The notes under the pieces: generated by a model
The model's input: the letters and a program-made list of their open reading frames with translations, nothing else
The model's database searches: none
Told to the model about the DNA's origin: nothing
Shown: piece by piece, positions 1 to 18,952 of the stretch
Layout of the letters: the number at the start of each line of letters is the position of its first letter
Position numbering within the stretch: position 1 is the first letter of the stretch
Position numbers and translations under genes: made by a program
Origin: Adineta ricciae
Taxonomy: Eukaryota
Reading direction: 5' to 3'
Length of the DNA stretch: 18,952 nucleotides
Assembly (NCBI GenBank): GCA_905250025.1
Contig: CAJNOJ010000333.1
Coordinates: forward strand, 27,220 to 46,171

Positions 1-3000
1 GTATAACACGAATCCGTGAAATATTACATAATCAATTAGGATCAAAATTATTATTACGTGTAAAGAAATAAGATTTTAAAACAAAAAGAAGGGAAAAAAA
101 AATGAATTTCTAAAATTTTTAGTCATTATTTAATCATCGTATTGATACACAAATACTTGATGAAAATGTATGTCAATTAATTGAATCAATTTGGTTAGAA
201 TCAATTGGTGATTTGAATAAAATTTTAAGTATAAAACCTGAATTATTTAATCTTAAAACGGTATTTACAAAAATATTTCTATAAATTTATGATTTAAAAT
301 TATTAAATAGATTATTGAAGCTGAAGCGGCATTACTTGAACTCAAATTAACTAATAATCCTGATGTTGCAGATCGTTTTTATTCATTAATACCACATCGA
401 TCACAATATCATATTGATCTTATTAAAAATCGTCGAATATTAATTGAAAAACTCGACTTGTGTCAAGTAAAATGATTTTTTTGAAAAATTTCTTTTCTTT
501 TTTTTATTTCTCTTCTCTTATTGAGATGCTTCGAGATATGTTAACAGTTAATGAACTAACTAATTGGAATGTAAAAGCATCAATTGAAGCAAAATATCGA
601 TCATTAAAATGTCATATTGAAACAATGTCAAATTCAACATCTGAATTTCAGAATATTTTTAATTTTATTCAATCATCTACAAATAGGTGAACAAATTCTA
701 CATAAACAATTTTATGATTATTTATTATTATTATAGGAATGAACAAATTATTATTCATAATATATTCAATGTTGTTAAACAAACAGATACTCTCAATTTT
801 TCTACAACATTATCCAATCAACAACAACTTTTTCATGGATCGAAATATTCAAATTTTCTTGGAATTCTTTCACGGTAAAGTATTTATTTAATTTTTAGAA
901 AAGATTTTTATACAACAAATTATATATATTTAGAGGTTTAGCAATGCCAAAAATGGTAATTGAAGAATTCGGTATTGATCGTACTGATATTGGTTGTCTT
1001 GGACATGGTATTTACTTTTCTAATTCTGCTTCAACATCTTTAAAATATACAACAGAAAGTACAATACGATCAGGTCGTCGTTTATTATGTATTTGTCAAG
1101 TAGCACTTGGTGAATCAGCTGATTATTATTCATTTTCACCAACACTTATCAAACCTCCTCATGGTTTTCATAGTACACATGGAATTAAACAAACTGAAGA
1201 TAATCATTCAATATTTAATGTAAGTTTCAATTAAACAATAAAAATTCAATTTAATAAGATTTTCTAAATATAATGATATAATTATATAGGATGATGAATA
1301 TGTTATTTATCAACTTGATCAACAACGTTTACTTTATATTGTAGAAGTTTCATGGATATTAAAAAATGAATTGAATATTGAATTAGAACGATTATCAATT
1401 ATTCATGATAAAGAAAATTTATTTAAAAAAAATGAAATTCCTACAATATTAATTGATGATGATAAAATCATTGAAATAGCTGAACAAGATTATGGTTTAA
1501 TATGTCCATCAACAGGAAAACTTATTCCACTTAAATCATTTCATATTCGTGCTCAAATTATCGATACTACAGTTGAAGTAATTTTATCGATTTTTCTATT
1601 CAATTAATTTATCATATTTATATTTTATTTTAAAAAAAAACAAAGGTTGTTCTTTATCAAGTTTATCAAAATACAAGTTCAATTCCAATTGAAGCTAAAT
1701 ATGTATTTCCTCTTGATGAAAATTCAATTGTTTGTGGTTTTGAAGCACATATTAATAATCAAATTATCAAAGGTATTGTTAAAGAAAAAGAACAAGCTAA
1801 ACAAGAATATAAACAAGCAATTGAAAAAGGTTATGGTGCTTATTTAATGCATCAAGAAGAAGCACAAGTATTTAGTGTTGCTGTTGGAAATTTACCAGCT
1901 CATAATGAAGTTATTATCAAAATAACTTATGTTGCAGAATTAGAAATTGAAAATAATGATATTATTTTTCGTTTTCCAGCTAAAATGGCTTTATGGCAAT
2001 CGAAAAAAGCGATTGAAAGCAAAGATCAATCAATTTTACAATCAATTAGTATTATCGATGAAAAAATTCAATTTAGTTTGAAAGTATCAATTCGAATGCC
2101 ATATAAAATATTAAAATTATTTTCACCAACACATCGTCTTCGTCGAAAATTAACTGATTGTATTGCTATGATTGAACTTGTTGATAAAATTTTATTTGAT
2201 CAAGATTTTATTCTTTCAATAACACTTAATAATCCTAATTTACCTCGAATATCAAATGAAATATCAAATAATGAGGATTCTCAAGTATCTATGCTTACTT
2301 TTTATCCACAATTTCAAACATTAATCAATTCAAACGAACAAATTGAAATTATTTTCATTGTTGATGTATCAAATTCAATGGATAACAGTCAGATACAACA
2401 AGCTAAACAATTAATTCATTTGTTTCTTATGAATTTGAAAGTTGATGATGAAAAAACATATTTTAATATCATTTTTTTTGGATCAGGTAAGAAAATACAA
2501 TTCTATAATGTTATTTTATTATCGAATAATTATCAATATTCATTTAGATAATGATGAATGTTTTCCTATATCAATGTTAACAACGAAAGAAAATCTGGAT
2601 AAAGCCAAATATTTTGTTCTAGTAACGATAATTTATCATTTTAATTGAATTTTTTATGTATTGAAATTTTAGCATTCACCTGTTTATCGTGGTAGTACAA
2701 ATCTATTTGCTGTTTTTCATCGTTATTCATTATTACCATCAACATTATCATCAAATTTTGGTCGTCAATTTATTTTATTATCTGATGGACATATTCATGA
2801 TCTTAATTCAATTCTTATTTTATTTAAACATCAATCAACTATGCAACATGATCGTTTATTTACATGTTCAATTGGTAATATTGCAAATAAACATAATTTA
2901 AAACAATTAACAAATGAAGCAAATGGAGGTGGTTTATTAACAATATTTGATTCAAATTATCGATCAAAATGGAAAATAAAAGTATTAAATATTCTTGATA

Positions 3001-3830
3001 AGATACAACAACCATGTATTACAAATATATCAATTGATTGGAATGGTTCTTTGAATAAAGAACAAAAGTTTCATATACAAGCACCAAAAATGATTCGTTC
3101 TTTATTTAATGGAATGCGACTTACTGTTTATCGATTCATAGAAAATTGTCATAAGGCAACATTAACAGCTATTATAAATGGACAAGAATTTGTTACAACT
3201 GTATTTAATAGTCCAATAACAAATACCAAAGGAAATATTTTACATTGTTTAACAACACGAGCGATCATTAATGATTATGACAATGGTCTATGGAATGTAG
3301 ATGAAAGTGAAAATGAATTGATTAAAATTCAATATAAACGAGATCTTATTGATCTTAGTATTAAACATTGTGTTATTAGTCCATATACAAGTTTTGTTGC
3401 CATCGAAGAACGTAATATTGAAATCAATCAAAATCATTTATCTTCTATTAGAAATGTTCGTTTACTTGATATTATGTTTGAACGAGATAATGATTTATTA
3501 CCATATATGAGTTGGGATGGTGATATATCAAATTTAACTTTAATCAAACAAAAATTAATCGATGCACGTATTTTACTTCAATGTGCATCGTTTCAGAGCA
3601 AAAAGGAAACAATTGTTGATATTGAAAAACTTTGTCAAAAAATTTCCTATCGAACAGGTGGAGATGAAAAATTCAATACAATGATGACTATCATACGTAC
3701 ATATCGTTATTCATTGAGTGAATATGATCAAGCAGATGAAATTGAAGAAAAAATGCGACATGGTATGTCATTCGATTTATTAATAATATTTATTTATTTA
3801 ATCGAAAAAATGAATAGATATAATCATTGA
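1..3830 (+). CDS. PARP4 / vault poly(ADP-ribose) polymerase-like protein (PARP regulatory + catalytic + VIT + vWA domains). Multi-exon; 5' end outside the window.
   Basis: Hand-spliced model: join(<1..59,123..260,311..466,526..686,737..874,934..1219,1290..1577,1646..2486,2548..2621,2673..3830). All introns are 50-70 bp GT-AG, and phases are consistent with the ORF-track frames. Peptides read from the sequence: regulatory helical domain '...RFYSLIPH...'; catalytic domain 'QQLFHGSKYSNFLGILSRGLAMPK...GIYFSNSASTSLKYT...DDEYVIYQLDQQRLLYIVEV' (the H/Y/E catalytic triad positions are present); VIT domain 'LIPLKSFHIRAQIIDTTVE|VVLYQVYQNTSSIPIEAKYVFPLDENSIVCGFEAHINNQIIKGIVKEKEQAKQEYKQAIEKGYGAYL...VGNLPAHNEVIIKITYV'; vWA domain with MIDAS 'IIFIVDVSNSMDNS', 'GSTNLFAV' and 'FILLSDGHI'. 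Alternative 3' end: a canonical ATG|GTATGT donor at 3769/3770 could splice to 3849..3917 instead of reading through to the stop at 3828..3830. Confidence 0.85.
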
Positions 3831-4082
3831 AATGATTAATGCAACAGCAGAAGAACGACAAATATTGGAAGAACAATGTTTCGCGAATAATTTTATAATC
3901 TCAAACGATCAATTGTAAATCAAAGACAAATCTTTTTCAAAAAAACAAATCAGAATTCGTTTATCTTGTAGTAAATCATTGGCTGAACATAATTCCACAG
4001 ACTTTTCAATTGCAAATAATACTAAAATAAGTGTACGTGAATGAAACTATAAGACGAATTCTTCTATATATAAATACTCTAG

Positions 4083-4593
4083 GCTGATCAATTGACTGAA
4101 GAACAAATAGCTGAATTTAAAGAAGCATTTTTTCTATTTGATAAACATGGTGATGGTACAATTACAACAAAACAATTAGGTACTGTAATGCGTAGTCTTG
4201 GTCATAATCCAACTGAAATTGAATTACAAAATATGATTGATGAAGTTGCTGCTGATGGTAAGATTTTAATCAATCAAATTTCATTTGATTCATTGTTTTT
4301 TTTTGTATTGTTAGGTAATGGTACAATTGATTTTCCTGAATTTTTAACAATGATGGTACGGAAAATGAAAGATACTGATTCAGAAGAAGAAATTCGCGAA
4401 GCATTCAATGTTTTTGATAAGAATGGTAATGGAATTATATCAATTGACGAATTTCGGTAATGAAAGAAAGATAAACATGCAAATTTATTTATTCTGTTTC
4501 TTCTTTTTTAAAGTCATGTTATGACAAATTTGGGTGAAAAACTTACCGATGAAGAACTTGATGAAATAGTTCGTGAAGCAGATGTTAATGGAG
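4083..4593 (+). CDS. Calmodulin-like EF-hand domain (exons 2-4 of the CaM-Hsp70SBD gene). Classic metazoan CaM gene structure, with the Met codon on a separate upstream exon.
   Basis: Exons 4083..4257, 4315..4456 and 4514..4593, with 57-bp introns (GTAAGA..TTAG, GTAATG..AAAG). Translation: [58 protein letters not shown]|[48 protein letters not shown]|[27 protein letters not shown]. Long stretches are identical to animal calmodulin. EF-hand loop positions are substituted: EF1 position 3 D->H, EF2 position 1 D->A, EF3 position 3 D->N, and EF4 is degenerate. Candidate Met-only exon 1: an ATG at 3767..3769 immediately followed by GTATGT. This is uncertain because it lies inside the PARP4-like last exon. 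Confidence 0.88.
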
Positions 4594-6405
4594 GTATACA
4601 TTTTTTTTTGTAACCAAAACCTACTGAAATTAATGTTAATACATGTTATGTTATGATTTGAGGTGTCGATTTGACAGTTTTATTTGGTTCGTCTAATCAT
4701 GCAGCTGATAAATCTGTATCGACTTCTGATAAGTCAAAATCATACGAACGATCTGAGAACATAGAAATATCTCCAAACATCTTATCATTTGATGCGGATA
4801 AAAGAGAAGAAAATCTGCAAGTTTCTGCAAATGAATCGAAAAATTCACTTTCAGCCAGTTCAGTATGTAAATTCTGCATGGAACTTTTTTAAATAAAAAT
4901 ATGATTGACTTTTAGATACAACATTATAAAGATGATATAATAACATTAACATGTAAAAATGTTGAATCAAAATTCAATATTTGTGATCTATTACTTCTCG
5001 ATGTTTGTCCACTTAGTCTTGGTATTGAAGATATTTATGGTAATATGCATATACTTATTCATCGTAATACAACGATTCCAGTACAAACACAATTTTATCA
5101 AATATTTACAAATGCTTATGCTTATCAAACATCAGTTAATATTCGTATATTTGAAGGTGAACATAAACTTACAAAATATAATGTATGTAATATTAAAACT
5201 TAAGAAACTTTTTGAATACAATTGTCTCTATTATAGATGTTTTTGGATGAATTTAGTCTTTTTGGTTTAACAAATAATTTTTTTGATCAAATACTTAAAA
5301 TAGGTGTTCGTATGAATATTGATGTCAATGGAATACTTCATGTTGATGTTGAAGAAACTTGTTCAGGAGCAAAAGCATTATTTATTCTTTCTTCTGATAA
5401 ACCAAGTTCGATAATTATTTTATATGTTCATAATGTTATCATTGAATATTATTTATATTTATATAGGAATGAGCAAAGAAGATATTGAAAAACATATTAC
5501 ATTTGTAGAAAGTTGTACAAATTTTATAGTTGATGATGATGATAAATCCAATGATTCATTATATCCGGTTTGTATTAGTTTATTTATATTTAATATAAAG
5601 TTTAACATTTCACTTTGTTTTTATCTTTTCTCAGCTCGATGGTCAAATTACAAATATACCACATAATTTTTCTGACAAATTGGATCCTTCATTTGGTAAT
5701 TTATTTTTATTTGCTATTTTATTGTAATGATATATGAATTTAGATCAAAAAGTTAAAATAACATTTCTTCGAAAAATGAAAGATATTCAATCTACAACAA
5801 GAATCATTGAAGAATTGCTAAAACTTCAATCTGAAGTAGAAATTTCCTTAAATATATAACTTATTTTCTATTTTATTCGAATATATAGGATGGAACATTT
5901 ATATTGAATCCAAATTTAGCTAATGTGTTTCATATTGATCCTAATAATTTAAATCATATTGAAATCTATTTATATAAACAAGGTTTTAATTTACTTGGTA
6001 AGATTCAAATGATTTATTTCATAAATATAAATTTTTATATTATTTTAAGCTTTAAATATTCAAAATGAAATTTATCGTTTAATTGGTACGGGTATCATTC
6101 TTCTTTGGTTTATACTTCAATTACCATCTCTACATCAGTATACAAACCAATTTTTATCTAACATTGACGAAATTAAAGTAAATTGAATTCTTTTTCGATC
6201 TTTTGTTTTTCTTTAAATCTTTAAGATTGATCTTTGCAACTTTTTTCCTGATAATATAATTGAACATATTAACAAAGCGATTGAATTCTATCGACAAACA
6301 AGTCAATGTAATGATATTTATTGTAAACAATTGGGATTGGATGATTCATCATGGAATATGTTTATTCAACGTATATTTATCGGACTTAACAATATTAATC
6401 ACTAA
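4083..6405 (+). CDS. Chimeric gene model: calmodulin-like N-terminus, acidic Ser/Lys-rich linker, Hsp70 substrate-binding domain (beta-sandwich + helical lid), and a C-terminal extension with one hydrophobic helix. No Hsp70 nucleotide-binding domain.
   Basis: Proposed join(4083..4257,4315..4456,4514..4593,4663..4862,4916..5182,5237..5405,5467..5567,5635..5695,5744..5835,5889..5997,6050..6177,6226..6405). The critical junctions stay in frame. CaM exon 4 (phase 1) joins the linker exon 4663..4862 ([67 protein letters not shown]). That exon has a canonical donor TCA|GTATGT at 4863 and a TTTTAG acceptor at 4915, and joins the Hsp70 SBD exon in phase 0. Weak points: the donor GTAGAA at 5836 (alternative stop at 5857..5859) and the choice of acceptor at 4663 versus 4678. 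Confidence 0.55.
4916..5567 (+). CDS. Hsp70-family substrate-binding domain (SBD-beta) exons
   Basis: Exons 4916..5182, 5237..5405 and 5467..5567. Translation: [89 protein letters not shown]|[56 protein letters not shown]|[34 protein letters not shown]. This matches the Hsp70 interdomain linker plus SBD signature (canonical ...[84 protein letters not shown]...ITITNDKGRLSKEEIE). It is divergent but unmistakable. Confidence 0.85.
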
Positions 6406-6847
6406 CCGATCATTATAATTGATTTCATTTCTTTTTAAGTTTGAATTACATTAAGAGTAACTCTCATATTTCTCGTTTTTAGATCAAAGGTTTAAATGTG
6501 AGTGTAAGGTGAAGATTAAGTCATCAATGTGTTATCTAAAAACGTTTTTACTCAGTAAGTTCTGTCCATAAAACCTATTCTATTTGATAGAAAATTAAAT
6601 TCTAAAACGAATGGACTAGATTTTATAGACTAGATAGGAACTCTTTAGTAAAATAGTTTTAATCTAAAATATCGTTTCATCAGATTAACTTCACACTGAT
6701 AACGAAAGCTTATGACGTAGATGTTCGTCACCAACAAGAGAATCTACTCACTTTTTCTGACATTTTGTCAACATACCTTTATAATTTTGATACGAAGAAT
6801 GAGACAAATAGTGGTCTTCATCATTTTTCTTATATCTTTCTTAAAAA

Positions 6848-7618
6848 ATGAAACAAATCTTTATGATATTTTTAATTATCATCTTGAATATAAAGAAGAA
6901 TGAATTGAAATGTCTTCAAGCTTGGAATGGAAGTGGAACAGGTGCATGGTATCGTGTAGATACTATTTGTAATTCTTCATTTATCTCAACAGAACTCATT
7001 AATTGTTTACCAACAATTATTTTACCTTTAAATTTAACGGAATTTACTGATGGATTCTATATTAGTTTAGGAGTTTTCAATCGTTTTAATGGAGTTTCGC
7101 TAGATATTGGTTTAACATTTGATTTGGAGAAAAATCGTTGGTTTTCTTACGGAAATGATCGATTAGGATGGAAATCCGGAAGTATTTCAATTGATTCCAA
7201 TGAAAATCGTTGTATTAATGTTTCTTTAAGTATTTTTAATGATTATATTCATTATATTATTCGAAACTCTAATGGTTCAATTATCTTAGGTGAAGATAAA
7301 TTTTATTCATTTCAAATTGATCCTCTATTAAATTTAACAAAAAATAATTCTGATTCATTTGGATTTTATCGTTTTGATAGTATTGCTCAAAGTAAAGAAA
7401 CATTGAAAAGTGGTTCTCAACTTATTCATGCGCAAATGTTCAATTGGACGGTTAAGTTTTCTTCAGGAGAAATTCTTCCAGCTAATGAATATAATATTGC
7501 TAAAAATATTAGTGGTTATTCACCAGGTATATGTTGTTCTAATCAAGAAATAAAAACAATTGAAATTCATCAACAAATCAAATGGAATCAATCGGATATA
7601 TCAATTCGTTATATTTAA
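6848..7618 (+). CDS. Secreted, heavily N-glycosylated protein of unknown family (single exon, 256 aa)
   Basis: ATG at 6848 and an uninterrupted 771-nt ORF. N-terminus MKQIFMIFLIIILNI is signal-peptide-like. There are about 13 N-x-S/T sequons and several Cys. I recognise no conserved domain. It is convergent with the Kelch gene, with 106 bp between the stops. Confidence 0.5.
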   Translation: MKQIFMIFLIIILNIKKNELKCLQAWNGSGTGAWYRVDTICNSSFISTELINCLPTIILPLNLTEFTDGFYISLGVFNRFNGVSLDIGLTFDLEKNRWFSYGNDRLGWKSGSISIDSNENRCINVSLSIFNDYIHYIIRNSNGSIILGEDKFYSFQIDPLLNLTKNNSDSFGFYRFDSIAQSKETLKSGSQLIHAQMFNWTVKFSSGEILPANEYNIAKNISGYSPGICCSNQEIKTIEIHQQIKWNQSDISIRYI

Positions 7619-7724
7619 TAATCAAAATACTTCAAATTTCTAAATTTTATGAAATGATTTTATTTTCAATATTTTGAATTCAATGAAAAAAATTACAATA
7701 TTTAGATTTTCGAATAAAATGTTG

Positions 7725-9392
7725 TCAATATAATTCATTTGTATTCAGAGAAACATTTCCATTTGATCCACTTGCAACTAATATAGTACCATCAAATAAA
7801 AGTGATGCGGTATGAGAATGTCGTATAGTACTCATATTCGATAGTATTGTCCAATTATTTGTTGATGGATCGTATAATTCAGCACTATTGAGATAAACAT
7901 TATTTTGACTTTGTCCACCTGTTACTAAAATTGTTCCATCCAATAAAACAGTCGCTGTATGAAAGTATCGCGCAGTTGTCATACTCGATGTTGTTATCCA
8001 ACTATTTGTTGAAGGATTATATAATTCAGCACTGTTCAGAGAATTACTGTTACCATAACCACCAATAACTAACACTTTTCCATTTTGTAGAAGAGATGCG
8101 GTATGAGAATATCGTGCAACAGTCATATTCGCCATTGTTGTCCAATTTCCTGTAGATGGATTATATAATTCAACACTATACAGAGGTGCATTATTATTAT
8201 ATCCACCTGCAACTAAGACTGTTCCGTTAAGTAAAACTGATGCAGTATGTCTAAATCTTGCAGAATTCATATTTCCTGTAGTTGACCAAGTGTTTATCGA
8301 TGGATCATACAATTCAGCACTGTTGACATAACCACTATTAGCAGAACCACCTGCAACTAATACTTTTCCGTTTTGTAAGAGTGATGCTGTGTGGTAGTAT
8401 CGTGTGATACTCATATTTCTCGTTGTTGTCCAATTACCTGTAGATAGATTGAATAATTCTACGCTATTCAGAGAAGCAACACTATTTTGTCCACCTGTTA
8501 TTAGTACTATCCCAGTTAATAAGAGTGATGAAGTGTGGTAACATCGAGTAGTTTTCATATTCCCTGTTATTGACCATATATTAGTAGATGGATCATACAG
8601 TTCAGCACTGTTAAGAAAAGCGTTATCATTCTGTCCACCAACAACTAATACTGATCCATTCGATAAAACTGATGCAGTATGTTTATTTCGGGCAATATTC
8701 AAGTTTTTCATCGTTGTCCATCCTAAAGAGTCAAAAAGTAAAAATCAGGTAAATTTACTCAATTAAAACTGTCAAATGTTGAAAGATAAATCGAAGTATT
8801 TCAATTACTAGACGATATTTTTCATTTATAAGAGAAGAGAGTTCATTATGCATTGATAAATATATAACATCAACATAATTACTATTTATCTTTTTCGTGA
8901 GGATTTTTCAAAATAGAAGAACGACAAGTAGTGAAATAATTATTTTAATTTTGCCTTACCTTTCAGTGATGCAGTTGTTGTGGATGTTGATTCTATAATT
9001 TGAGAGAATATCATAAAGAAAAACGAAGATTATTTTGCTTTTTCAAAATCTCGTTAAAATTCATTAAACTTACCATGTGTTGAGATTATTGTTACAATAA
9101 TCGATGTTCGATTAAGAAATACCATTGTAACATTCGAATAAGATTCAATTGTCAATGAATTATTATTTAAATTGAACAATTGGCACGTTTCATTTGAATT
9201 AAAATAATTCATAAGAGATATTGAATTGTTATTTAAATTAATCATTTGACAAATACATTCATCAAATGTTTTATTGAAAAAGATCTGATTTTCAGTACCA
9301 ATATATGTGTAGTCATATACTATTCCAATAGCAATCGTATGAATTGTAGGTATATAGAGTAGAATCAGGTTTAAAAAAATCACGTCTGTCAT
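7725..9392 (-). CDS. Secreted Kelch-repeat protein (7-blade beta-propeller) with an N-terminal signal peptide and a Cys/N-glycan-rich region
   Basis: Model: join(complement 9074..9392, complement 7725..8722). Exon 1 (MTDVIFLNLILLYIPTIHTIAIGIV...IISTHG) ends at a CATG|GTAAGT donor in phase 1. The acceptor TTTAG at 8723 then gives G-WTTMKNLNIARNKHTASVLSNGSVLVVGGQ... Seven tandem ~48-aa Kelch units follow (consensus AELYDPSTN.W..T.NM...R..HTASLL.NG.VLV.GG). An optional in-frame 33-nt micro-exon (complement 8960..8992, ESTSTTTASLK) is flanked by AG and GTAAGG and is also phase 1 to phase 1. Confidence 0.78.
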
Positions 9393-10160
9393 TCTACGAG
9401 TGTTTCTGGAGGAAATTTCAACTGATTTATATAGGAGGTTTTTTTCTATGCAACAGTTTCATCTAATTATTTTCCATTTAGAAGAGAAAAAGAGAGACAA
9501 AAGAAAACAAGGACCTCAGCATCTTTTGTTGAGTTATTGTCAAACAAAAATGCTATGAAACTATATTGTTATACATGAAATACAATTATCTTTATCTACC
9601 ATCATTGATTAACGAATGTTTGTTTATAGAATTTTTCCAAACGCGTTACACAACCTCGATATTCATAATTTTTCATGCAATTGAGTGCATATAATTAATA
9701 CGATGCAAACCTTTCCTTGATGAGAGTGCAAATGTTGGAAAAAAAGAAGAAAAAAATGTTGATATCAATAAGAATATAATTTATCAAAAAGAAGTAATTA
9801 TGATATCTTGTTCGATTTGAGAACTCATTTTGTTCTAAAAGATTTTTGTTAGTACCAAAAGAAAAATATTTGTTTAGTTTTTTTTCTCCATTGTAATAAT
9901 CAAAGTGCATGTTATAAAATGAAAGATAAAGAAGAAAATAATGCATTATCAGAACAATTGATAAGAAAAAAATGAGAAACTTTACTTATTTTACCTCATC
10001 ATTTTGAAAATAGAAGATCAGAAATGAAAACACATTCATCTTCAATAAATAGTTTGAATAAAAACGGAATTCCAGTAAATTAATAAGAGAAATTTTCTCT
10101 TAAACTGAACTTTTTCTCTTTTTTCTTTAAAAGATAAGTGTTATACCATCAGGATCACCT
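9393..10160. promoter_or_regulatory. Divergent (bidirectional) intergenic region between the Kelch gene (minus, ATG at 9392) and the permease gene (plus, ATG at 10161)
   Basis: 768 bp with no convincing ORF; A/T-rich and homopolymer-rich. Function is inferred from gene orientation only. Confidence 0.3.
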
Positions 10161-12101
10161 ATGAATGTCAATGATGAAACATCTGTTAATGATGTTCAAT
10201 TCAATCAAAATTTCTCTCAGGTAATAATCTTTTATTTTATTTTCATTATGACAAATGAGTTTTCATTTAGAGAAGATTTCTTAAAAAATTAATTCCAAAT
10301 TTTTTGCGAAAAAATTCTTCATCTGAAGATGTTGATAATCCATATGCAAATGAATATGCTGATACTGAAGTTTTAGTTCATGGAGAAAAAGTTGATTTAC
10401 ATCGAAATTTACAAGAACGACATATGATCATGATTGCATTAGGTGGAACGATTGGAACGGGATTATTTTTAGCATCTGGACAAGCTTTAGCATCGGCTGG
10501 ACCTGGTGGCTCTTTAGTATCTTATTTAATCATTTCTGTTATGGTTTATTTCGTTATGACGAGTTTAGGTAAAATTATTTGATTTCTTCAATGAAAAAGA
10601 CTTTTATGTTTTTTTTTAAAGCTGAATTAGCAACACAATATCCGATAAGTGGTTCATTTAATACATTTGGAAGTCGATTTGTTGATGAAGCTTTTGGATT
10701 TGCATTAGCATACAATTATTATTTTTCTTGGGTAACAACGATCGCAGGTGAATTAGTTGCTGCTGGTCTCATTGTTCAATATTGGTTGCCACATTTTCCT
10801 TCAATTATTTGGTCAATCCTGGGAATGTTAGTTATGTTTTTATTAAATGCATTTACAGTCAAAGGTTATGGTGAAGCTGAATATTGGTTTGCAATGATTA
10901 AGGTCATAACTGTACTCATATTTCTACTTGTTGGTGTTCTTGTTGATTCGGGTGCTATTGGAAAACCAAGAGAAACAATTGGTTTTAAGAATTGGAAAAT
11001 TGAAGGTGCACCTTTTGTTGGAGGAGTTGCTGGTGTTATTACAACATCAATTATATCTGGTTTTGCTTTTCAAGTACGAAGAATTTCGGTTTTTTTTCTC
11101 AAATATAATCTTCTATCGAATATATATAGGGAACAGAAGCAGTTGGAATTGCAGCTGGTGAAAGCTCCAATCCGAAAAAAGATGTTCCACGTGCAATGAA
11201 TGGAACAATTTGGCGTATTATTTTATTTTTTGTTGGTGCTATTTTTATTATGGGTTTAATTATTCCATATAATGATAAAAAATTAAGTCAAATTAATGGT
11301 GTTGACAGTATCGCTGTTTCCCCATTTACATTAGTATTTAGTCTATCGGGTATTCCAGGAGCTGATCATATTATGAATGTTGTTATTTTAACAACAATCT
11401 TATCAGCTGGTAATTCAGGTCTTTATTTATGTACAAGAATATTTTGGACTTTAGCAAATGAAGGCAAAGCACCGAAAATCTTTCGTCGTTTAACAAAAGG
11501 TGGAATACCAATTTATTGTTTAATTTTAACAACCGTTTTAGCAACTTCTTTATTTGGTTTATCATTTGTTGGAAATCAAGTTATTTACATTTGGTTAGTT
11601 AATATGACGAGTGTTATGGGTTTCATTGCTTGGTTTGGAATCGCTATTGCACATTGGAGATTTCGTCGAGCATTTCTCGCACAAGGTTATTCATTGAATG
11701 ATTTGGTTTATAAAGCGTTATTCTTTCCTGTTGGACCATTTTTGGCATCGCTACTTATTTTACTTTGTGTTTTTGGACAAGGTTATTCAGCATTTACACA
11801 AAAAACTTTTAATTGTACTCAGTTACATGAAGAAGAAACTTATCTTTTTGAATTCAATAATCAATATTTAATCGATAGCGGAAATTCAACAACGTGTACA
11901 AAAACAGTCTTTAATGTTCAAACATTTTTATCTGGTTATGTGATCTTACCAATCCTTGTTATTATGTTTTTCGTTTATAAATATGTTAAGAAAACGAAAT
12001 TTATTCCACTTAAAGATATTGATTTGCTTACTGATAGTGTTATGGAACGTGACCGTTTGAAACGAGAAAGAATACAACAATTACAACAAACAGACGCTTA
12101 A
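10161..12101 (+). CDS. Amino-acid permease of the APC superfamily, AAT/YAT family (LysP / Can1 / Gap1-like), about 593 aa, four exons
   Basis: Model: join(10161..10220,10271..10568,10622..11073,11130..12101), with introns of 50, 53 and 56 bp. Translation: MNVNDETSVNDVQFNQNFSQ|RRFLKKLIPNFLRKNSSSEDVDNPYANEYADTEVLVHGEKVDLHRNLQERHMIMIALGGTIGTGLFLASGQALASAGPGGSLVSYLIISVMVYFVMTSL(A)ELATQYPISGSFNTFGSRFVDEAFGFALAYNYYFSWVTTIAGELVAAG...GYGEAEYWFAMIKVITVLIFLLVGV...GFAFQ|GTEAVGIAAGESSNPKKDVPRAMNGTIWRIILFFVGAIF...MNVVILTTILSAGNSGLYLCTRIFWTLANEGKAPKIF..LTKGGIPIY...FIAWFGIAIAHWRFRRAF... These are all hallmark AAT/YAT motifs. A C-terminal loop insertion carries N-glycosylation sequons and Cys. AATAAA signals lie at 12136 and 12147. 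Confidence 0.85.
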
Positions 12102-12135
12102 TTTTATCTTCTACTTCAATTTCTCTTTTTTCTTC

Positions 12136-12152
12136 AATAAATTTTCAATAAA
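12136..12152 (+). promoter_or_regulatory. Tandem AATAAA polyadenylation-signal candidates, 35-50 nt downstream of the permease stop
   Basis: aataaa at 12136..12141 and 12147..12152. The permease stop is at 12099..12101. Confidence 0.4.
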
Positions 12153-12594
12153 AATCTAAACTAATTATTTAAGTTTCGTGTGTCAATATTCTTTCTTTCA
12201 TTAAGTATCATTTAAATAACACAGTTGACGCAAACATCTTGTGATTTGTCTTCTTCTTCATTTTGTGTTAATCTATGAAATCCTTTGTATCGATAGTTCC
12301 AATTACTAAACATCAAATTATTTCAGTTATTAATATTATTCAAATCAAACGTAATTTACCTATAAACAGCCACATGATACACAATCAAAAAACCCAAAAT
12401 CGATAAAAATATAATCAAACATATGATGAGAAAAAAATATAGTTTTGTTTTGTTAATTGTAATCGCCTGAAGATGTTTCAAATCAGTTAATAAGAATCGA
12501 ATTGTAGACCAATTTTCAACACCTGTATATGTATCTCCTTAGAAATAATAAATGAAATAAATTCAATATTTGAATAAACTAAACGTAAATTAAT

Positions 12595-14153
12595 TTATGA
12601 ATTACTAGTAGATGATTCTATTGTATGTTTCATGTGTATGTCATTATTCTTTTGTATTTGCTCAATAGTATATGGTTTGTCTGGAATAATGACACTATCA
12701 GATGGAATTAGCCTATATATATATCAAAAGTAGATATTGTATGAATATATAAAAATTAATTTTTACCTCGTTATATTACCGGAATATTCTCCCCAACAAA
12801 ATTCAATTAAAGGATTAAATCCTTCCCATTTATTATTATTTAGTACAGTTGGCTCATATGAATACATTGCATATATATTACACATTTCATCATCATGTCT
12901 TTGTCTAATTTTCCCAAATAAAATCTATTCTTTTGTATATAAAATTATTCGATCTTACCCGATGTTAATAATTCTATCATCATTGTTATCATAAACACAT
13001 TGACCAATAATAAAATCATTCTTTTCAATTTGTATAGATGATGAAAGTGGATAAAATGATTGAGGCCATTGTGGATTACTTTTACCAATCTGTAAAATAG
13101 TTTTATTTCGTACTCGATATATTGAAGATACCCTTCCTATGACAATAAATAGTTTCAATGATCTTCCATAAATATATACAAAAAAATCGAACCCCATTGA
13201 TGTGTATGATAGTGAAGAGCAAATATGGATATTGTAGGTCCAAGATAACGACATGAAAAGGGTGTTCGAATATCTAGAGAATTCAATTTGAGTAGGATAA
13301 AAGATACGTAAAAACCTTGTTCGAGTACCTTGTGTTCTTGGTGGTAAAGTGATATTCGATGTACCAGCTAAAAACATTCCTGCATGATACTTTCGCCTAT
13401 AAGATAAAAATGAAATCTTATCTAGAAAAAGGTGGTAACGGTATTTGAAATTATTTATTACATCTTTCGAGTAAAAAGAATTTGGATACCAGAATTATCA
13501 TTGGTAATAATTGGTAAATAATGAATATTCATTACAAGATATTTATATGATGTATTATGACCAACAACAAAACCAGTATCTTAATAGAATAACATTATGA
13601 TTTTTCTTTCTTATCTAGTGAAAAACACCTTTAGGTAATGCTAATGAAGATCCATTTCTTGACCAATCATAAATAATCATTTGTTTATTTCTGCATGCTG
13701 TTCCATCAAACCTATAAAAATAATTTTACTGTTTAATTTTTAAAGTCAAATTATTAAATAATACCAAATAGATTCATTAGATGTGGGAGTAACGCAAGCC
13801 AATGTGAGTATATGATGAGCTGTATTCATATTAACCAATGGTTTAAAATCAACTTCAGTTTTTGAAAGTAAATCATTTTCTCGATAAGTAAAATTTCAAA
13901 CTTACTAATCATCAATTTTTCATCAGGTAATTTATATTGGATATATACTTGTTGATCTCCCTAAAGATGTCAAGAATTATTTTTATAATCGTCGTTTTAT
14001 AATCATATTTACTTCTTTTGTTGTCACATTCTTCATAGTAAAATTAAAAGTGAAATTATCTTCATTATCATAAATATCTTGCGAATGAATGGATTTGATG
14101 TTAATAAGAAGAAAAATCAAAATATTTTGAATGACTAATATTTCTATATTCAT
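12595..14153 (-). CDS. Peptidylglycine alpha-hydroxylating monooxygenase / dopamine beta-hydroxylase-like protein (copper type II ascorbate-dependent monooxygenase fold). Secreted. The CuM His pair is absent.
   Basis: Model on the minus strand: exons 14013..14153 (MNIEILVIQNILIFLLINIKSIHSQ..., signal peptide), 13906..13960, 13765..13852, 13629..13711, 13462..13579, 12959..13396, 12780..12904, and a terminal exon at 12595..12680 (alternative acceptor 12694). Introns are 49-65 bp except the last, which is ~99 bp. All are GT-AG with consistent phases. Alignable with PHM: 'QVYIQYKLPDEKLMIIDFKPLVNMNTAHHILTLACVTPTSNESIW|FDGTACRNKQMIIYDWSRNGSSLALPK|DTGFVVGHNTSYKYLVMNIHYLP...|MRKYHAGMFLAG...SIYRVRNKTILQIGKSNPQWPQSFYP...GQCVYDNN...|GQRHDDEMCNIYAMY...'. 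The 26-nt intron alternative at exon 2/3 was rejected in favour of a 53-bp intron that restores the IDFKP alignment. The last exon is low confidence. Confidence 0.78.
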
Positions 14154-14357
14154 TATTTTATGTTACACTTTTCTTAACATCTAAAAATGTTAAAAACTAA
14201 TAATTGTTAGTTTATTCTACTCAATAAGATGAAAAAAAACGCACAGATCACTTGTAAAAGCAGAAGAAACGCAGTTTTAAATACATTAAATATTTTAAAG
14301 TCTGTTTAAACATTTGCTATCATTGTGAAGCTAGCACATCGATTCTTCGTGCTAGCT

Positions 14358-14788
14358 TCACGCTGGTGTTTTTGCTTGACAGCAACAATAAAAGTTTGTA
14401 TTAGAAGTGCAAATACCCTTATTACTGAGATTTATTGTGGAAGGTGTCATCATTCCTCGACGACGACGGCTACTCGCGAAACTGGTTCCGGAAAAAGACG
14501 TACGACAAGAGCCGTCGTTGCTAACAGGAACAGGGTTGATGACAGTGTCAAAACCACCTTTAGTACAATAGGTGTTACAATTAGTAGAACCAGTAGTGCC
14601 GTCAGATATAGTATAATCAACAGAACAAGTAGCACCTGTTGGCTTAGATGTTGTTGTGGTTGTAGTAGTAGTAGTGGTAGTAGTTGTTGTTGTCGTTGTG
14701 CTGGGAGTGGTAGTAGTAGTTGTCGTTGTCGTTGTGCTGGTAATGGTAGTAGTAGTTGTTATTGTTGTTGTCGTTAGTGGTATGATGA
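14358..14788 (-). CDS. Terminal exon of a mucin-like protein: Thr-rich (ACN)n tract followed by a short Cys-containing C-terminal module
   Basis: Minus-strand translation: VIIPLTTTTITTTTTITSTTTTTTTTTPSTTTTTTTTTTTTTTTSKPTGATCSVDYTISDGTTGSTNCNTYCTKGGFDTVINPVPVSNDGSCRTSFSGTSFASSRRRRGMMTPSTINLSNKGICTSNTNFYCCCQAKTPA*. Stop at 14358..14360; acceptor TATACAG at 14789. A candidate upstream 42-nt Thr-rich exon lies at complement 15133..15174 (acceptor TTTTAG, donor GTGAGT). Confidence 0.5.
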
Positions 14789-15325
14789 CTGTATAAAAAT
14801 GTAATTAGTCTCATTTAATCTTAAGTCGACTAATTCGGGTATTAAACCTTGTCGAAATCCTAAGAGAGTGTAGGTGTATGCGATATTTATGATTTCTCAC
14901 TTATGAATGTTTTTTATTTTGATATATATTTATATTTATGTCTAGCTCATATCAGTTATTCTCAACAATTTTGAAAGAAAATCAATAATATTTTGGAGAC
15001 GGGATGTGATTCATATTTTTCATGAAGTGCATTTCTCAATCCGCGATACCTGTCGTATCATTCAGCGAATTAGTCTGCGACATACACATACAAACCTCTT
15101 CTAACTACATATATCTTAGATAGGACACTCACCTTTTGTTGTAGATATTGTTTGCATCGTTGTAGTTGTTGACACTAAAATAACTGTAAAAAAAAACGAA
15201 GAAGGAATATTGCACACGGTTATAAACTTAGTCGTGAAAAAATCTATTCACAAAGATCTAACATATATATAAATGTCATGAGAAAATAATTGAACGCGAT
15301 CAATAAAAATAGGATGACATCTTTT

Positions 15326-16066
15326 TTATATGTCCTGTTTCAATCCGAGAGACAGACTATGTGAATAAACATGACGATAAATACCTGGTTGAATCTCACT
15401 AAACGAACAGAATGTGAGTCCAATTGTAATTGTTGAACCATTAACCGTTGTCAGCAGTAGTTGTGTTTGTTCACGCAAAGCCGTTTCAACTTTTGTCAAT
15501 GTTTCACGGAATGTCTTTTGACAATTATTCGAGAGACATGTAGATTTAGGTTTCAATATAAATCTAATAAAGAGATAGTCCCCTGATGTGCCCGAATCTA
15601 TGGTACATTGTTGAGCTTTTGATCTAGAAATAAAAAATATATTCAATTTTAGAGCAGTTAGAAGTATGTACTCGATGTCTCGTCGTTTCTTGTACGTATT
15701 TGTTGATACTGATGAAATGAATACAAATTTGGCTGTAGTAACAATAACATTTGGATATTGTGCTGTTAACTGTGAAATAAAAATAACCAAATGTAAAATT
15801 CTATTAATATGAAACAGTATACTAGAGCAGCTAAACTGTCAGCATTGGCAGCTACTACTGTATCAGTACTTTTAAAATTAGTTCCATAAGAGACACTTAT
15901 CATTTCGCTGACTAAAAATAAAGAAATTAAGTTTAATACAGATTAATATGGAAAAAAGTGAGTTCGTACGTGAAGCATTGTTAGTAACAGTGAAATCACT
16001 TCTTGATATGTATGTTGGAATTAAACTGAGCACAATAGCAATTGCAGCTACACAAGGAATACACAT
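15326..16066 (-). CDS. Signal-peptide-bearing Cys-containing protein; three candidate exons. Possibly the 5' part of the mucin-like gene.
   Basis: Minus strand: exon 15970..16066 (MCIPCVAAIAIVLSLIPTYISRSDFTVTNNAS, donor C|GTACGA), exon 15823..15911 (..SEMISVSYGTNFKSTDTVVAANADSLAAL, donor CTA|GTATAC), and exon from 15769 (acceptor TTTCACAG) down to the stop at 15326. An alternative donor CCA G|GTATTT at 15384 could join the 15174 mucin exon in frame. The model is tentative and rests only on splice-motif and frame logic. Confidence 0.35.
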
Positions 16067-16687
16067 TAAGCAACATAAAAAAGCCAGTGGCGTTCGTTTC
16101 CTGTAAAAAAAATGAAAATATTTTCTTATAGAAGATATTGCATATTCTATTATTGATCAAGACATAAATCTGACTATAGTATGTTTCTTATTGGCAACCA
16201 ACACAAAACTGTAGTAGTCACTCGAAAAATGTGAATGTAAAATAACACTCCTACCGTAACTTAATTGCTGTGCCATTATTCGTATCCATTTCAAGAGTTG
16301 TCAGATGACACGTACAGATAGTTAAAAATGCAATTATTTATCAAAACGATAAAGAAAATCTAAAAAAGATAAATTTCATTTAAGCTGGATAACAAAGAAG
16401 TGACGCCCATTCGTTGACTCTTTTTTGAAAGAGTTAGAAAAATAGTAGATAAAAATCCTCACTTTAATCTCAATCTAATCGGCTACGAACTGAAGTCTCT
16501 TTTATGCACATTCCTCCATTTTACCTCCTTCTACTTTATTCATGTCAAATTACCTCCAATTCGTTTGCCCAAATATGTCAGCAAAATAAATACTGTTTCG
16601 AAACATTTATTCATCGACTTTCTTTCGACTAGTTAAAATAAAAAATTAATTTACTTCCACTTATTTTATCTCTTCTAAGTGACCATA

Positions 16688-17004
16688 TGATGCGTTATAG
16701 TGTTTACCAGGAAATTCTATCTGTTTTCGGTATCAACTGATTTCCCGGAAATTGAATTTCTTGATCAGACAAACCGAACAGTACAAATAGTTATAATGCT
16801 CATATAGGGCATCTGGAGGGCGAGGGTGTGAGGTGGGTGTCGGTAGGGATTTCTCTCAGTGAGGGTACCGGGTGGGTGTCTGTGCCCTATATGAGCATTA
16901 TAACTATTTGTACTGTTCGGTTTGTCTGATCAAGAAATTCAATTTCCGGGAAATTAGTTGGTACCGAAAACATAGAATTTCCTGGTAAACACTATAACGC
17001 ATCA
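16688..17004. repeat. Foldback element: two ~123-bp arms (16688..16811 and 16883..17004) that are reverse complements at about 97% identity, around a 71-bp G-rich loop. MITE-like, foldback-transposon-like or a hairpin-RNA locus.
   Basis: Direct reading: the left arm tgatgcgttatagtgtttaccaggaaattctatctgttttcggtatcaactgatttcccgg...gctcatatagggca equals the reverse complement of the right arm, except for a 2-bp indel and two substitutions. The loop is tctggagggcgagggtgtgaggtgggtgtcggtagggatttctctcagtgagggtaccgggtgggtgtctg. No clear target-site duplication. Confidence 0.8.
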
Positions 17005-17297
17005 AATCTTTCCGGCCGGCTATTCAAAGAATACTGTACCTCCCCTCCTCCCGCTACGGCAAAATGTATCCATATGGATATATCCGGCTGGGAAGGGTTA
17101 AATTACTAATATCATAATGTGAGATATACCAGATCTTTTTATGTAGGCTCCGTAAACTACTGCCGTTGTACATATCACATCCGGGAATTGTGTTCAAACA
17201 ATTACCTTTTACAACAGAATTTTTAAAAAACACAGAAAAATATCTCCTTTGAAACAAGAAAGGAAGAAGTGTAAGCTTGGTGAATAAGAAAAAAACT

Positions 17298-17439
17298 AAG
17301 CTCAGATTTGAATTCTACGGCATCGATTACCCTTCGGTCAACCCTTAGTGTGAACATTATTATTCTATGCATAGTTAATTAATAATTAGTTAAAGCTAAC
17401 CTCAGATTGAAGTTCCCCGATCTCGATTATCGTACCGGT
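17298..17439 (+). repeat. Two degenerate ~42-47-bp direct repeats (about 75% identical) flanking an AT-rich palindromic spacer
   Basis: Unit A 17298..17338: aagctcagatttgaattctacggcatcgattacccttcggt. Unit B 17393..17439: aagctaacctcagattgaagttccccgatctcgattatcgtaccggt. The spacer contains ttaattaataattagttaa. Confidence 0.35.
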
Positions 17440-18361
17440 AATCATTTTCTAACAACTATCGATCAATTTCATTGATTTTAGAAATGCTCATTTCTGATTG
17501 AATAGGACAGACAGACAAACTTTAAGCTTTTTAGCACAGCATCTAAATGCTGTATAATCCTTTCTCTCAGAAAAGGGAAATAAAAAATCCCAAAAAAGCC
17601 TTAAAAGGATGAAAATTTCAGAAAAACATTCAAGAACTCGTTTCCTCACCTCCAGATACACAACTCGATGGGCTCCATCGACTTCAATCATAAAAAAATC
17701 TCCACACGCAACCTCATGACTGAAACATAATACGATACGATTTGTGGACCGCTGTTAAGGCAAATGAATAAGACTCACTTTTTGGGTACATAAAAAGGTG
17801 AATGACTGGTATATCTACTACGCCTTTAGTTACTTGTCTACTAATACACGAAAATGTGAATAAATATTTTCCATTTATACAGTCGCGAATATGCTAGTTT
17901 TTGTATTTTTTCTTGTTTTTGTGAATGTTCGCTTATACGGAGCTTTTGATGTCATTTTTTGTATACGATTGTTTTTATCCGTTCTTATCAACCGTTGTAT
18001 ATAAAATAAAAATTTGTTTTCACCAATAAGCTTATGCATTCTTCATTATATTTACAAGGAAAATGTAATCGGTGTCAAGCTGAGACACAATTTCGTTTGG
18101 ATGACTTCACAACGCTCAAGCCAATATGATTCGGTCGGTTAGTTTCATTTTACGACGATCATCCTGGACCGATCAAAACGTATGCAAAAGTTTCTTTGAC
18201 AAACAGAAACAATAATAAACAAGAATTCTTTACGATTAATATTAAAATAATTTCATTAATATATAAATATCAATAGAAGTTGAAAATTTGAACCAGAGCG
18301 AGTAAATTCTTTTTAAGATTTATTTTGAGTATTTTTTGTATAGTTCATTGTAAACCAGAGC

Positions 18362-18400: not shown

Positions 18401-18952
18401 TCTCTATTGTCAACACGATTGCATCTAGTGAAGTCGATGTTTACAGTTCCAATATAATTCTATAGGATTTTATCGACAAAAGACCAGTCATTGTATATGT
18501 TTTGAAAGGGTTTTTTACATATAATTTAACCCTTTGAGCCCCGACGACGCATATATGCGTCCAAATGCAATTATTTGACAAAGATACTCCTGATATAGTT
18601 TTTAATTGTTTATAACGCCTCTCACTCGTTTTATTTGATGTTACGACTCTTGAGTAATCCTCATTTCTTCCCTTTCTGCTTATTAATAATACATATTTAT
18701 ATTCTATGTGCTTTCTTTCGTTCTGTATGACAGTACACACTATCTCTCATTCTAGCACATTCCAAAACAGTCACTAAAATGGTACAAGAAGCTATTTTTC
18801 CATGTTTTGCATATGCCAGTGTACAATGCATTTGTTATTCAAAAAATGTAGAACAATATTTCCTCTGATCTATCTGATTTTCGACTTGAAGTAATCAGAC
18901 AAATTTTGACGAAGTGTGGACCACAAAGATCAACTACGATTGGGAGACCATC

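Follow-up and report, generated by a model that had tools for sequence, protein, structure and literature searches.

The foldback described here, a 325-bp piece of non-coding DNA in the genome of the bdelloid rotifer Adineta ricciae, predates the split of two homologous haplotypes. It lies at 16684..17008 of the window (the whole stretch of 18,952 nucleotides that was analysed), and it occupies the same site in both haplotypes, which have diverged by 4.7%. Its two arms change together within each haplotype, and the spacer between them stands in opposite orientations. We consider it likely that this is an old long inverted repeat, with concerted arms and a spacer inverted between haplotypes, which is both maintained and flipped by recombination from arm to arm.

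For comparison, two contigs of assembly GCA_905250095.1 were used. CAJNOR010005744.1 (L001) is 99.98% identical to window positions 1271-10786. CAJNOR010001146.1 (L005), which was reached through a near-identical protein (P0122), carries the other haplotype and aligns with window positions 1-17007 at 92.8% identity, gaps included. The coordinates of the features discussed below are collected in Table 1.

Table 1. Features of the foldback and of the DNA next to it (window coordinates unless stated otherwise)
Feature	Position	Strand	Basis or remark
Orphan gene model, 336 aa, no Pfam family	~14360..16285 (L005 17508-19428)	-	Coordinates transferred by haplotype alignment
Left arm of the inverted repeat	16684..16811		Repeat finder, arm alignment, haplotype comparison
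Spacer (loop), degenerate telomere-repeat-like tract	16812..16882	+	G-rich strand is + here, reverse-complemented in the other haplotype
Two 23-nt direct repeats in the spacer	16822..16883 (16822-16844, 16861-16883)	+	78% alike
Right arm of the inverted repeat	16883..17008		Compared with the left arm, carries the 2-bp deletion and the two internal substitutions
Right-flank segment, unalignable with the other haplotype	17009..17725		Starts exactly at the repeat end

Structure of the foldback and its G-rich spacer

Two pairs of arms were reported by the repeat finder, one of 90 nt at 98% (16722-16811/16883-16972) and one of 41 nt at 93% (16685-16725/16967-17007). The two pairs are collinear, with just a 2-bp indel between them, and together they make up one stem. 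When the left arm is aligned globally with the reverse-complemented right arm, this indel and two internal substitutions appear, and all remaining mismatches are confined to the outermost 3-4 nt. The 317-bp foldback that the preliminary description had placed at 16688-17004 is thus found there, with the differences it had listed. Position 16688 is the start of the left-arm core, and the four nucleotides before it (CATA, 16684-16687) are paired solely in the L005 haplotype. With a length of about 125 nt and a complementarity of 97-98%, the arms qualify as terminal inverted repeats. The foldback is the sole inverted repeat of at least 30 nt in the window, and the same is true of the 20.8-kb homologous locus (L005).

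The predicted folds are very stable. As DNA, the element reaches -141 kcal/mol (z = -34 against dinucleotide shuffles), and as RNA of the + strand about -225 kcal/mol (-225.5; z = -30); none of the shuffles was as stable in either case. The minimum free energy of the - strand RNA is -204 kcal/mol. All six reading frames across the element are closed by stops. Tandem Repeats Finder detected no tandem arrays in the 16.6-17.0 kb region, and the arm sequence is unique. Searches against Rfam, over the whole window at gathering thresholds and over 16500-17200 in a permissive E-value scan, returned noise only, with no family at E<0.3; neither a hammerhead ribozyme nor another Rfam family was found at the element. 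The window contains no tRNA genes.

The spacer is 71 nt long and 62% G+C, with 35 G versus 9 C, in a window whose mean G+C is ~28%. Its G-richness and its seven GGG runs agree with what had been described before. In contrast, the canonical G-quadruplex (G4) motif claimed for it fails the strict definition (four runs of at least three G, loops of 1-7 nt), which has no match in the spacer, as two loops reach a length of 8 nt. Under a relaxed definition, with loops of up to 12 nt, there are two overlapping matches. A G4Hunter-style score has its maximum in the spacer (1.52 over 25 nt), which is the top value of the window, but only a moderate one. The second-highest score of the window, on the minus strand, belongs to a C-rich block (CCTCCCCTCCTCCCGC) at 17033-17058, 30 bp to the right of the element; this block is absent from L005.

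Concerted arms and an inverted spacer in two haplotypes

In L005, the element is located at 19827-20151, at the same site as in the window, with arms of 129 nt that are 98% complementary and a spacer of 67 nt. The left flank is 93-98% identical between the haplotypes right up to the repeat, and the substitution divergence of 4.7% was measured over 4.6 kb of it. Since one and the same site is occupied in two haplotypes this diverged, the element is not recent. The recent origin that had been suggested to lie behind the 97% identity of the arms is therefore contradicted by the haplotype comparison, in which the arms are also seen to change together within each haplotype.

Between haplotypes, the left arms differ at ~6 and the right arms at ~8 of ~125 positions. 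This amounts to ~4.7-6.3%, versus 4.7% in the flank, which gives the neutral rate, whereas the two arms within one haplotype differ by ~2% only. Therefore, the complementarity of the stem has been conserved and its primary sequence has not. In a two-sequence consensus fold, four stem pairs (columns 18/310, 100/228, 103/225 and 122/206) have changed on both sides between the haplotypes, and about six (five or six) have changed on one side, all of them still pairing as G-U on the + strand. Mirrored identical changes would be expected by chance 0.13 times, versus the four that are seen (P about 1e-5). Moreover, the spacer of L005 corresponds to that of the window in reverse complement, which makes its + strand C-rich. 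Further peculiarities of the L005 spacer are a deletion of 11-12 nt between GGGTGT units and an imperfect duplication of 9 nt at one of its junctions. The deletion shortens the direct repeat at 16822-16844 by 11-12 nt, as would be expected from slippage between such units.

Because the spacer is flipped between the haplotypes, the arms have recombined with each other. The evidence for the flip and for conversion comes from two sequences, which do not resolve the number and direction of the events. The spacer orientation of the window haplotype is that of one assembly, and a short-k assembler could in principle mis-orient this spacer, because the innermost ~72 nt of the window arms are perfectly symmetric.

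Probably, the arms pair with each other, be it as a hairpin or cruciform formed by a single strand or through intrachromatid recombination. A non-crossover outcome would amount to gene conversion, in which changes are copied from one arm to the other, and a crossover would invert the spacer. Near-perfect arms would then be the steady state of an old palindrome and not a mark of its youth. As conversion may keep a palindrome near-perfect indefinitely, a high arm identity is silent on age; arms that recombine with each other can be near-identical without being of recent origin.

Inverted chimeras are a product of multiple displacement amplification. DNA of A. ricciae ARIC003 was amplified by this method (PMC7943196), and a symmetric inner stem can confuse graph assemblers, both of which speak for an artefact, be it an inverted chimera that arose during whole-genome amplification or an inverted duplication that was mis-assembled or collapsed. 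However, two contigs of diverged haplotypes have the element at an identical site, the mismatches between the arms and the indels in the spacer are peculiar to each of them, and both contigs run on into the conserved right flank (window 17722 / L005 20401), unlike a snap-back chimera. Therefore, we regard the element as real, and the assembly artefact brought up in the preliminary description as extremely improbable.

The concerted change would also follow from selection on an RNA hairpin. If the locus were a functional hairpin-RNA (endo-siRNA) gene, with a + strand transcript whose pairing is under selection, one would expect a stem like the present one, ~125 bp and almost perfect. All of the five or six one-sided substitutions are transitions that leave G-U pairs on the + strand and would leave A-C on the - strand. 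Given a transition fraction of 0.68 in the flank, the post-hoc probability of this pattern is ~0.009, but the statistic concerns five events and ignores the 2-nt bulge, which breaks the pairing; the one-sided pattern could also reflect strand-biased C-to-T change. A divergent promoter is conceivable, the start of a minus-strand gene being ~400 bp away, and long inverted repeats are known as siRNA sources (LIRBase, PMC8728187). Yet the arms match nothing else in the window and their open frame has no protein relative, so that no target gene emerges. The primary sequence evolves at the neutral rate, and the flipped spacer shows that recombination at the DNA level can by itself explain the concerted change. 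On these grounds a hairpin-RNA gene appears improbable. Selection for pairing, the other reason given earlier for the likeness of the arms, is thus left in an intermediate position: the paired changes do keep the arms alike, but gene conversion, which the preliminary description had not listed, is the simpler cause, as the flipped spacer bears witness to arm-to-arm recombination. A hairpin RNA derived from a protein gene was considered separately and rejected, the 38-aa open stretch in the arm having no relative among 1.84 billion representative proteins. The foldback resembles the long inverted repeats and hairpin-RNA loci of eukaryotes that are collected in LIRBase (PMC8728187) in having arms of at least 100 nt, a short spacer and no coding capacity, and it would likewise give a long double-stranded RNA if transcribed. 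It differs from them in its telomere-repeat-like spacer and in that it is known from DNA alone.

The locus and the breakpoint in the right flank

The element is intergenic and lies within the last 5 kb of the window, which is gene-poor. The genes of the window are split by introns and encode a VIT/VWA-EF-hand protein, a Kelch-repeat protein, an amino-acid permease and a copper monooxygenase; an ORF at 6848-7618 is identical to A. ricciae CAF1404223.1/CAF1574746.1. For the Cu2-monooxygenase, splice-site enumeration led to 33 equally valid protein models, and one of its exons, used as a query for an orthologous locus, retrieved short metagenomic fragments only. The foldback is upstream of the orphan gene model, whose start codon is the one ~400 bp to its left. 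The longest ORF in the range of this model, which adjoins the element, has 154 aa (15326-15790, minus strand); no protein relatives of it were found, and in L005 it is split into ORFs of 76 aa and 56 aa (18456-18924). Therefore, the 336-aa model may be spurious or decaying.

Several other features of the locus were observed. Inside the orphan gene model there is a (TAGTTG)n / 36-nt tandem repeat (14645-14782), which on the minus strand would encode Asn/Tyr/His-rich low-complexity sequence. The bin with the highest substitution divergence between the haplotypes (11%) is 14351-14600; the following bin, 14601-14850, which contains this repeat, has 6% divergence and the most gapped columns. The Kelch-repeat ORF (7725-8711, minus strand) consists of 6.6 tandem units of 144 nt, 66-75% alike, and the annotated Kelch gene model is longer in the sister contig (449 aa). 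In the models at window 1847-4460, L001 1-5135 and L005 2350-9531, PARP/VIT/VWA domains are fused with a calmodulin-like EF-hand region in a product of 1390-1921 aa, so that either the architecture is unusual or the gene model has been merged. Outside the rotifers, the permease (window 10297-12101; L005 1-1437) has its closest relatives in bacteria (Providencia, Peribacillus, 42-46% identity) and in zygomycete fungi. L005 additionally carries a type III polyketide synthase and a FAD monooxygenase/halogenase-like gene. Judging by sequence similarity, the neighbourhood of permease, polyketide synthase and FAD monooxygenase looks like a cluster of horizontally acquired genes. Bacterial- and fungal-like genes are typical of bdelloid subtelomeric regions and are concentrated near the chromosome ends.

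On the right side, the homology between the haplotypes stops at the base of the stem (window 17007 / L005 20150), and collinearity returns at window 17722 / L005 20401. The DNA in between measures 717 bp in the window versus 254 bp in L005, and the sole block in common is 54 nt at 72%. The palindrome structure probably makes the site prone to breakage; its link to the rearrangement of the right flank consists in the coincidence of coordinates. A larger transposon spanning 16684-17725 was considered as well and is unlikely, its far end having no matching terminus. The segment (17009-17725 versus L005 20152-20405) is hypervariable between the haplotypes. It includes a direct repeat of ~45 nt with a spacing of 100 nt (17298-17345 and 17398-17445; motif CTCAGATT.GAA..C.ATCGATTA), which is present as a single copy in L005 (20268-20311).

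Origin of spacer and arms, and related systems

The telomeric repeat of bdelloids is TGTGGG (Gladyshev and Arkhipova 2007, as cited in PMC7943196). The spacer contains 8 permuted TGTGGG hexamers, derived from three motif occurrences, versus 1.6 expected from its composition (P=0.008). It can be aligned in phase to (TGTGGG)n over ~66 nt, with a similarity of ~65-70% and a score of 23 versus 13.9 for shuffles (P=0.002), and the L005 spacer behaves alike. The telomere-like character attributed to the loop by the preliminary description is thus borne out statistically, though the spacer does not contain a single pair of adjacent perfect units, and tandem telomeric repeats were found neither in the window nor in L005. 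Some variant units, for example GGGTGTCGGT and GTGAGT, are common to the spacer and to true interstitial telomeric arrays of Rotaria sordida, which adjoin the homologous amino-acid permease gene just downstream of it. These (TGTGGG)n arrays (L004 16835-17125; L002 and L003 about 16840-17100) lie beyond the last coding exon of the permease, 170-450 bp downstream, occur in both orientations within ~300 bp and include the variant units GTGAGT, GTCGGT and GTATGG. From their arrangement, they look like a former chromosome end beside a possibly horizontally acquired gene.

A reasonable reading of the spacer is that it may represent a decayed interstitial telomeric tract. Tracts of this kind are left by telomerase or by break repair at healed breaks. 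With interstitial telomeric sequences, including the bdelloid (TGTGGG)n arrays, the spacer has in common its G-richness, its hexamer periodicity and the variant units also found in R. sordida. In contrast to them, it is heavily degenerate, without two perfect units, and it is located at the centre of a palindrome, not between telomere-associated retroelements. A terminus of a Penelope/Athena telomeric retroelement was also considered and discarded: the element has no ribozyme, no trace of a reverse transcriptase, no ORF and no protein relative.

The arms could have originated as a palindromic MITE-like insertion flanked by TA or as a fold-back duplication. According to the former possibility, which we entertain only tentatively, the element would be what remains of a palindromic DNA transposon of the non-autonomous kind (a MITE, for example of Tc1/mariner type with a TA target-site duplication) that was inserted before the haplotypes diverged, and any function would be incidental. 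Such an origin is compatible with conversion and flipping, which would then act on a transposon relic. It agrees with an element that is small, non-coding and nearly all terminal inverted repeat, and MITEs have been reported from bdelloid genomes (PMC7943196). In L005, the core TGATGCG...CGCATCA has TA on both sides, as in Tc1/mariner; however, TA is palindromic and cannot be distinguished from an extension of the repeat, the L005 repeat runs 2 bp beyond TA, and in the window AA stands in place of the right TA. Apart from these TA flanks in L005, no target-site duplication of 3-10 bp was found at the element. The rearrangement of the right flank starts exactly at one terminus, as it would with breaks induced by a transposase, or by a hairpin. 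On the other hand, no further copy was found in the window, in 16 other rotifer loci (~270 kb) or in the metagenome, prokaryote and viral collections, and both haplotypes are filled, so that no empty site, and hence no presence/absence polymorphism, was found. In the metagenome scans, a 22-mer from the arm had no matches, and the 5 matches of a terminal 19-mer are all due to chance (~20 nt, in contigs of 40-48% G+C, without repeat structure); the prokaryote and viral scans had 0 matches. The R. sordida loci and the metagenomic rotifer contigs show no similarity to the element and share only the permease exons with the locus. The Foldback (FB) family in particular is ruled out, since the arms are without the tandem sub-repeats that define it.

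A fold-back inverted duplication, arising when a chromosome broke at a former telomere, or close to one, and was repaired, is in our opinion unlikely, and less favoured than a transposon relic. In that case the left arm and the G-rich tract would be original sequence with telomeric repeats at its end, the right arm would be a copy that had snapped back, and the right boundary would be an old repair junction. The spacer does resemble a telomeric tract, and in the window it is G-rich in the 5' to 3' direction away from the left arm, like a chromosome end; yet no perfect tandem telomeric units occur in the window or in L005, and the flipped L005 spacer means that the ancestral orientation is not given. 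The absence of a convincing target-site duplication, the bacterial- and fungal-like genes nearby, which are of a subtelomeric kind, and the position of the R. sordida permease homologue beside true interstitial telomeric arrays in both orientations are in agreement with such a repair event. The right boundary is indeed a homology breakpoint, but it is common to both haplotypes, which means that the right flank peculiar to each haplotype must have come about separately and later, and the fold-back model leaves unexplained why this later rearrangement began at that very boundary. Moreover, the ends of the spacer are without microhomology for fold-back priming.

A more elaborate scenario, which we judge to be improbable, would make the element a record of break repair. 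A perfect palindrome would have been cleaved at its centre and healed with repeats added by telomerase, which became the asymmetric spacer; flipping and conversion, and a second break at the base of the stem, would have followed. Alternatively or additionally, the + strand would be a hairpin-RNA gene under selection.

The behaviour attributed here to an old inverted repeat maintained by arm-to-arm recombination has parallels elsewhere. Human MADE1 is a palindromic MITE derived from Tc1/mariner. Like such palindromic MITEs, the foldback is small, non-coding, almost wholly composed of terminal inverted repeats and maybe flanked by TA. It differs from them in that neither a second copy nor an unambiguous target-site duplication was found; its arms are longer than typical, its spacer is G-rich and its parent transposon is not known. 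Kelchner and Wendel reportedly described, in 1996, small inversions associated with hairpins in plastid non-coding DNA and attributed them to recombination in the stem. The flip-flop of a short spacer between inverted repeats, with both orientations present in related sequences, is the same here. However, the present locus is nuclear and belongs to an asexual animal, its arms are ~125 bp versus 10-30 bp in plastids, and both orientations coexist as haplotypes of one genome. For sex-chromosome palindromes, arm-to-arm gene conversion is said to have been described by Rozen et al. in 2003. The likeness lies in arms that are more alike than their age predicts, owing to conversion within the palindrome, and in spacer inversion polymorphisms. 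The scale is different by 3-4 orders of magnitude (125 bp versus 10 kb to 1 Mb), and the arms of the foldback are devoid of genes.

The most plausible activity of the element would be that of a hotspot of recombination and fragility and, if it is transcribed, of a source of ~125-bp double-stranded RNA. Current concepts are not changed by it, as the behaviour is already familiar from plastid hairpins, sex-chromosome palindromes and long inverted repeats. It does illustrate that the near-identity of palindrome arms is no clock: the arms are ~98% alike in an element older than a haplotype split of 4.7%. Being small and of a size suited to PCR, the locus offers a way to trace intrachromosomal recombination, gene conversion and spacer inversion by comparing the haplotypes of a clonal animal. 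If small RNAs arise here, the element would become a candidate for an endogenous hairpin-RNA locus, and such loci have been little studied in this group. Finally, the element may connect the fragility of palindromes with the insertion of telomeric repeats, and the break-repair scenario, if true, would concern an animal that is both desiccation-tolerant and asexual.
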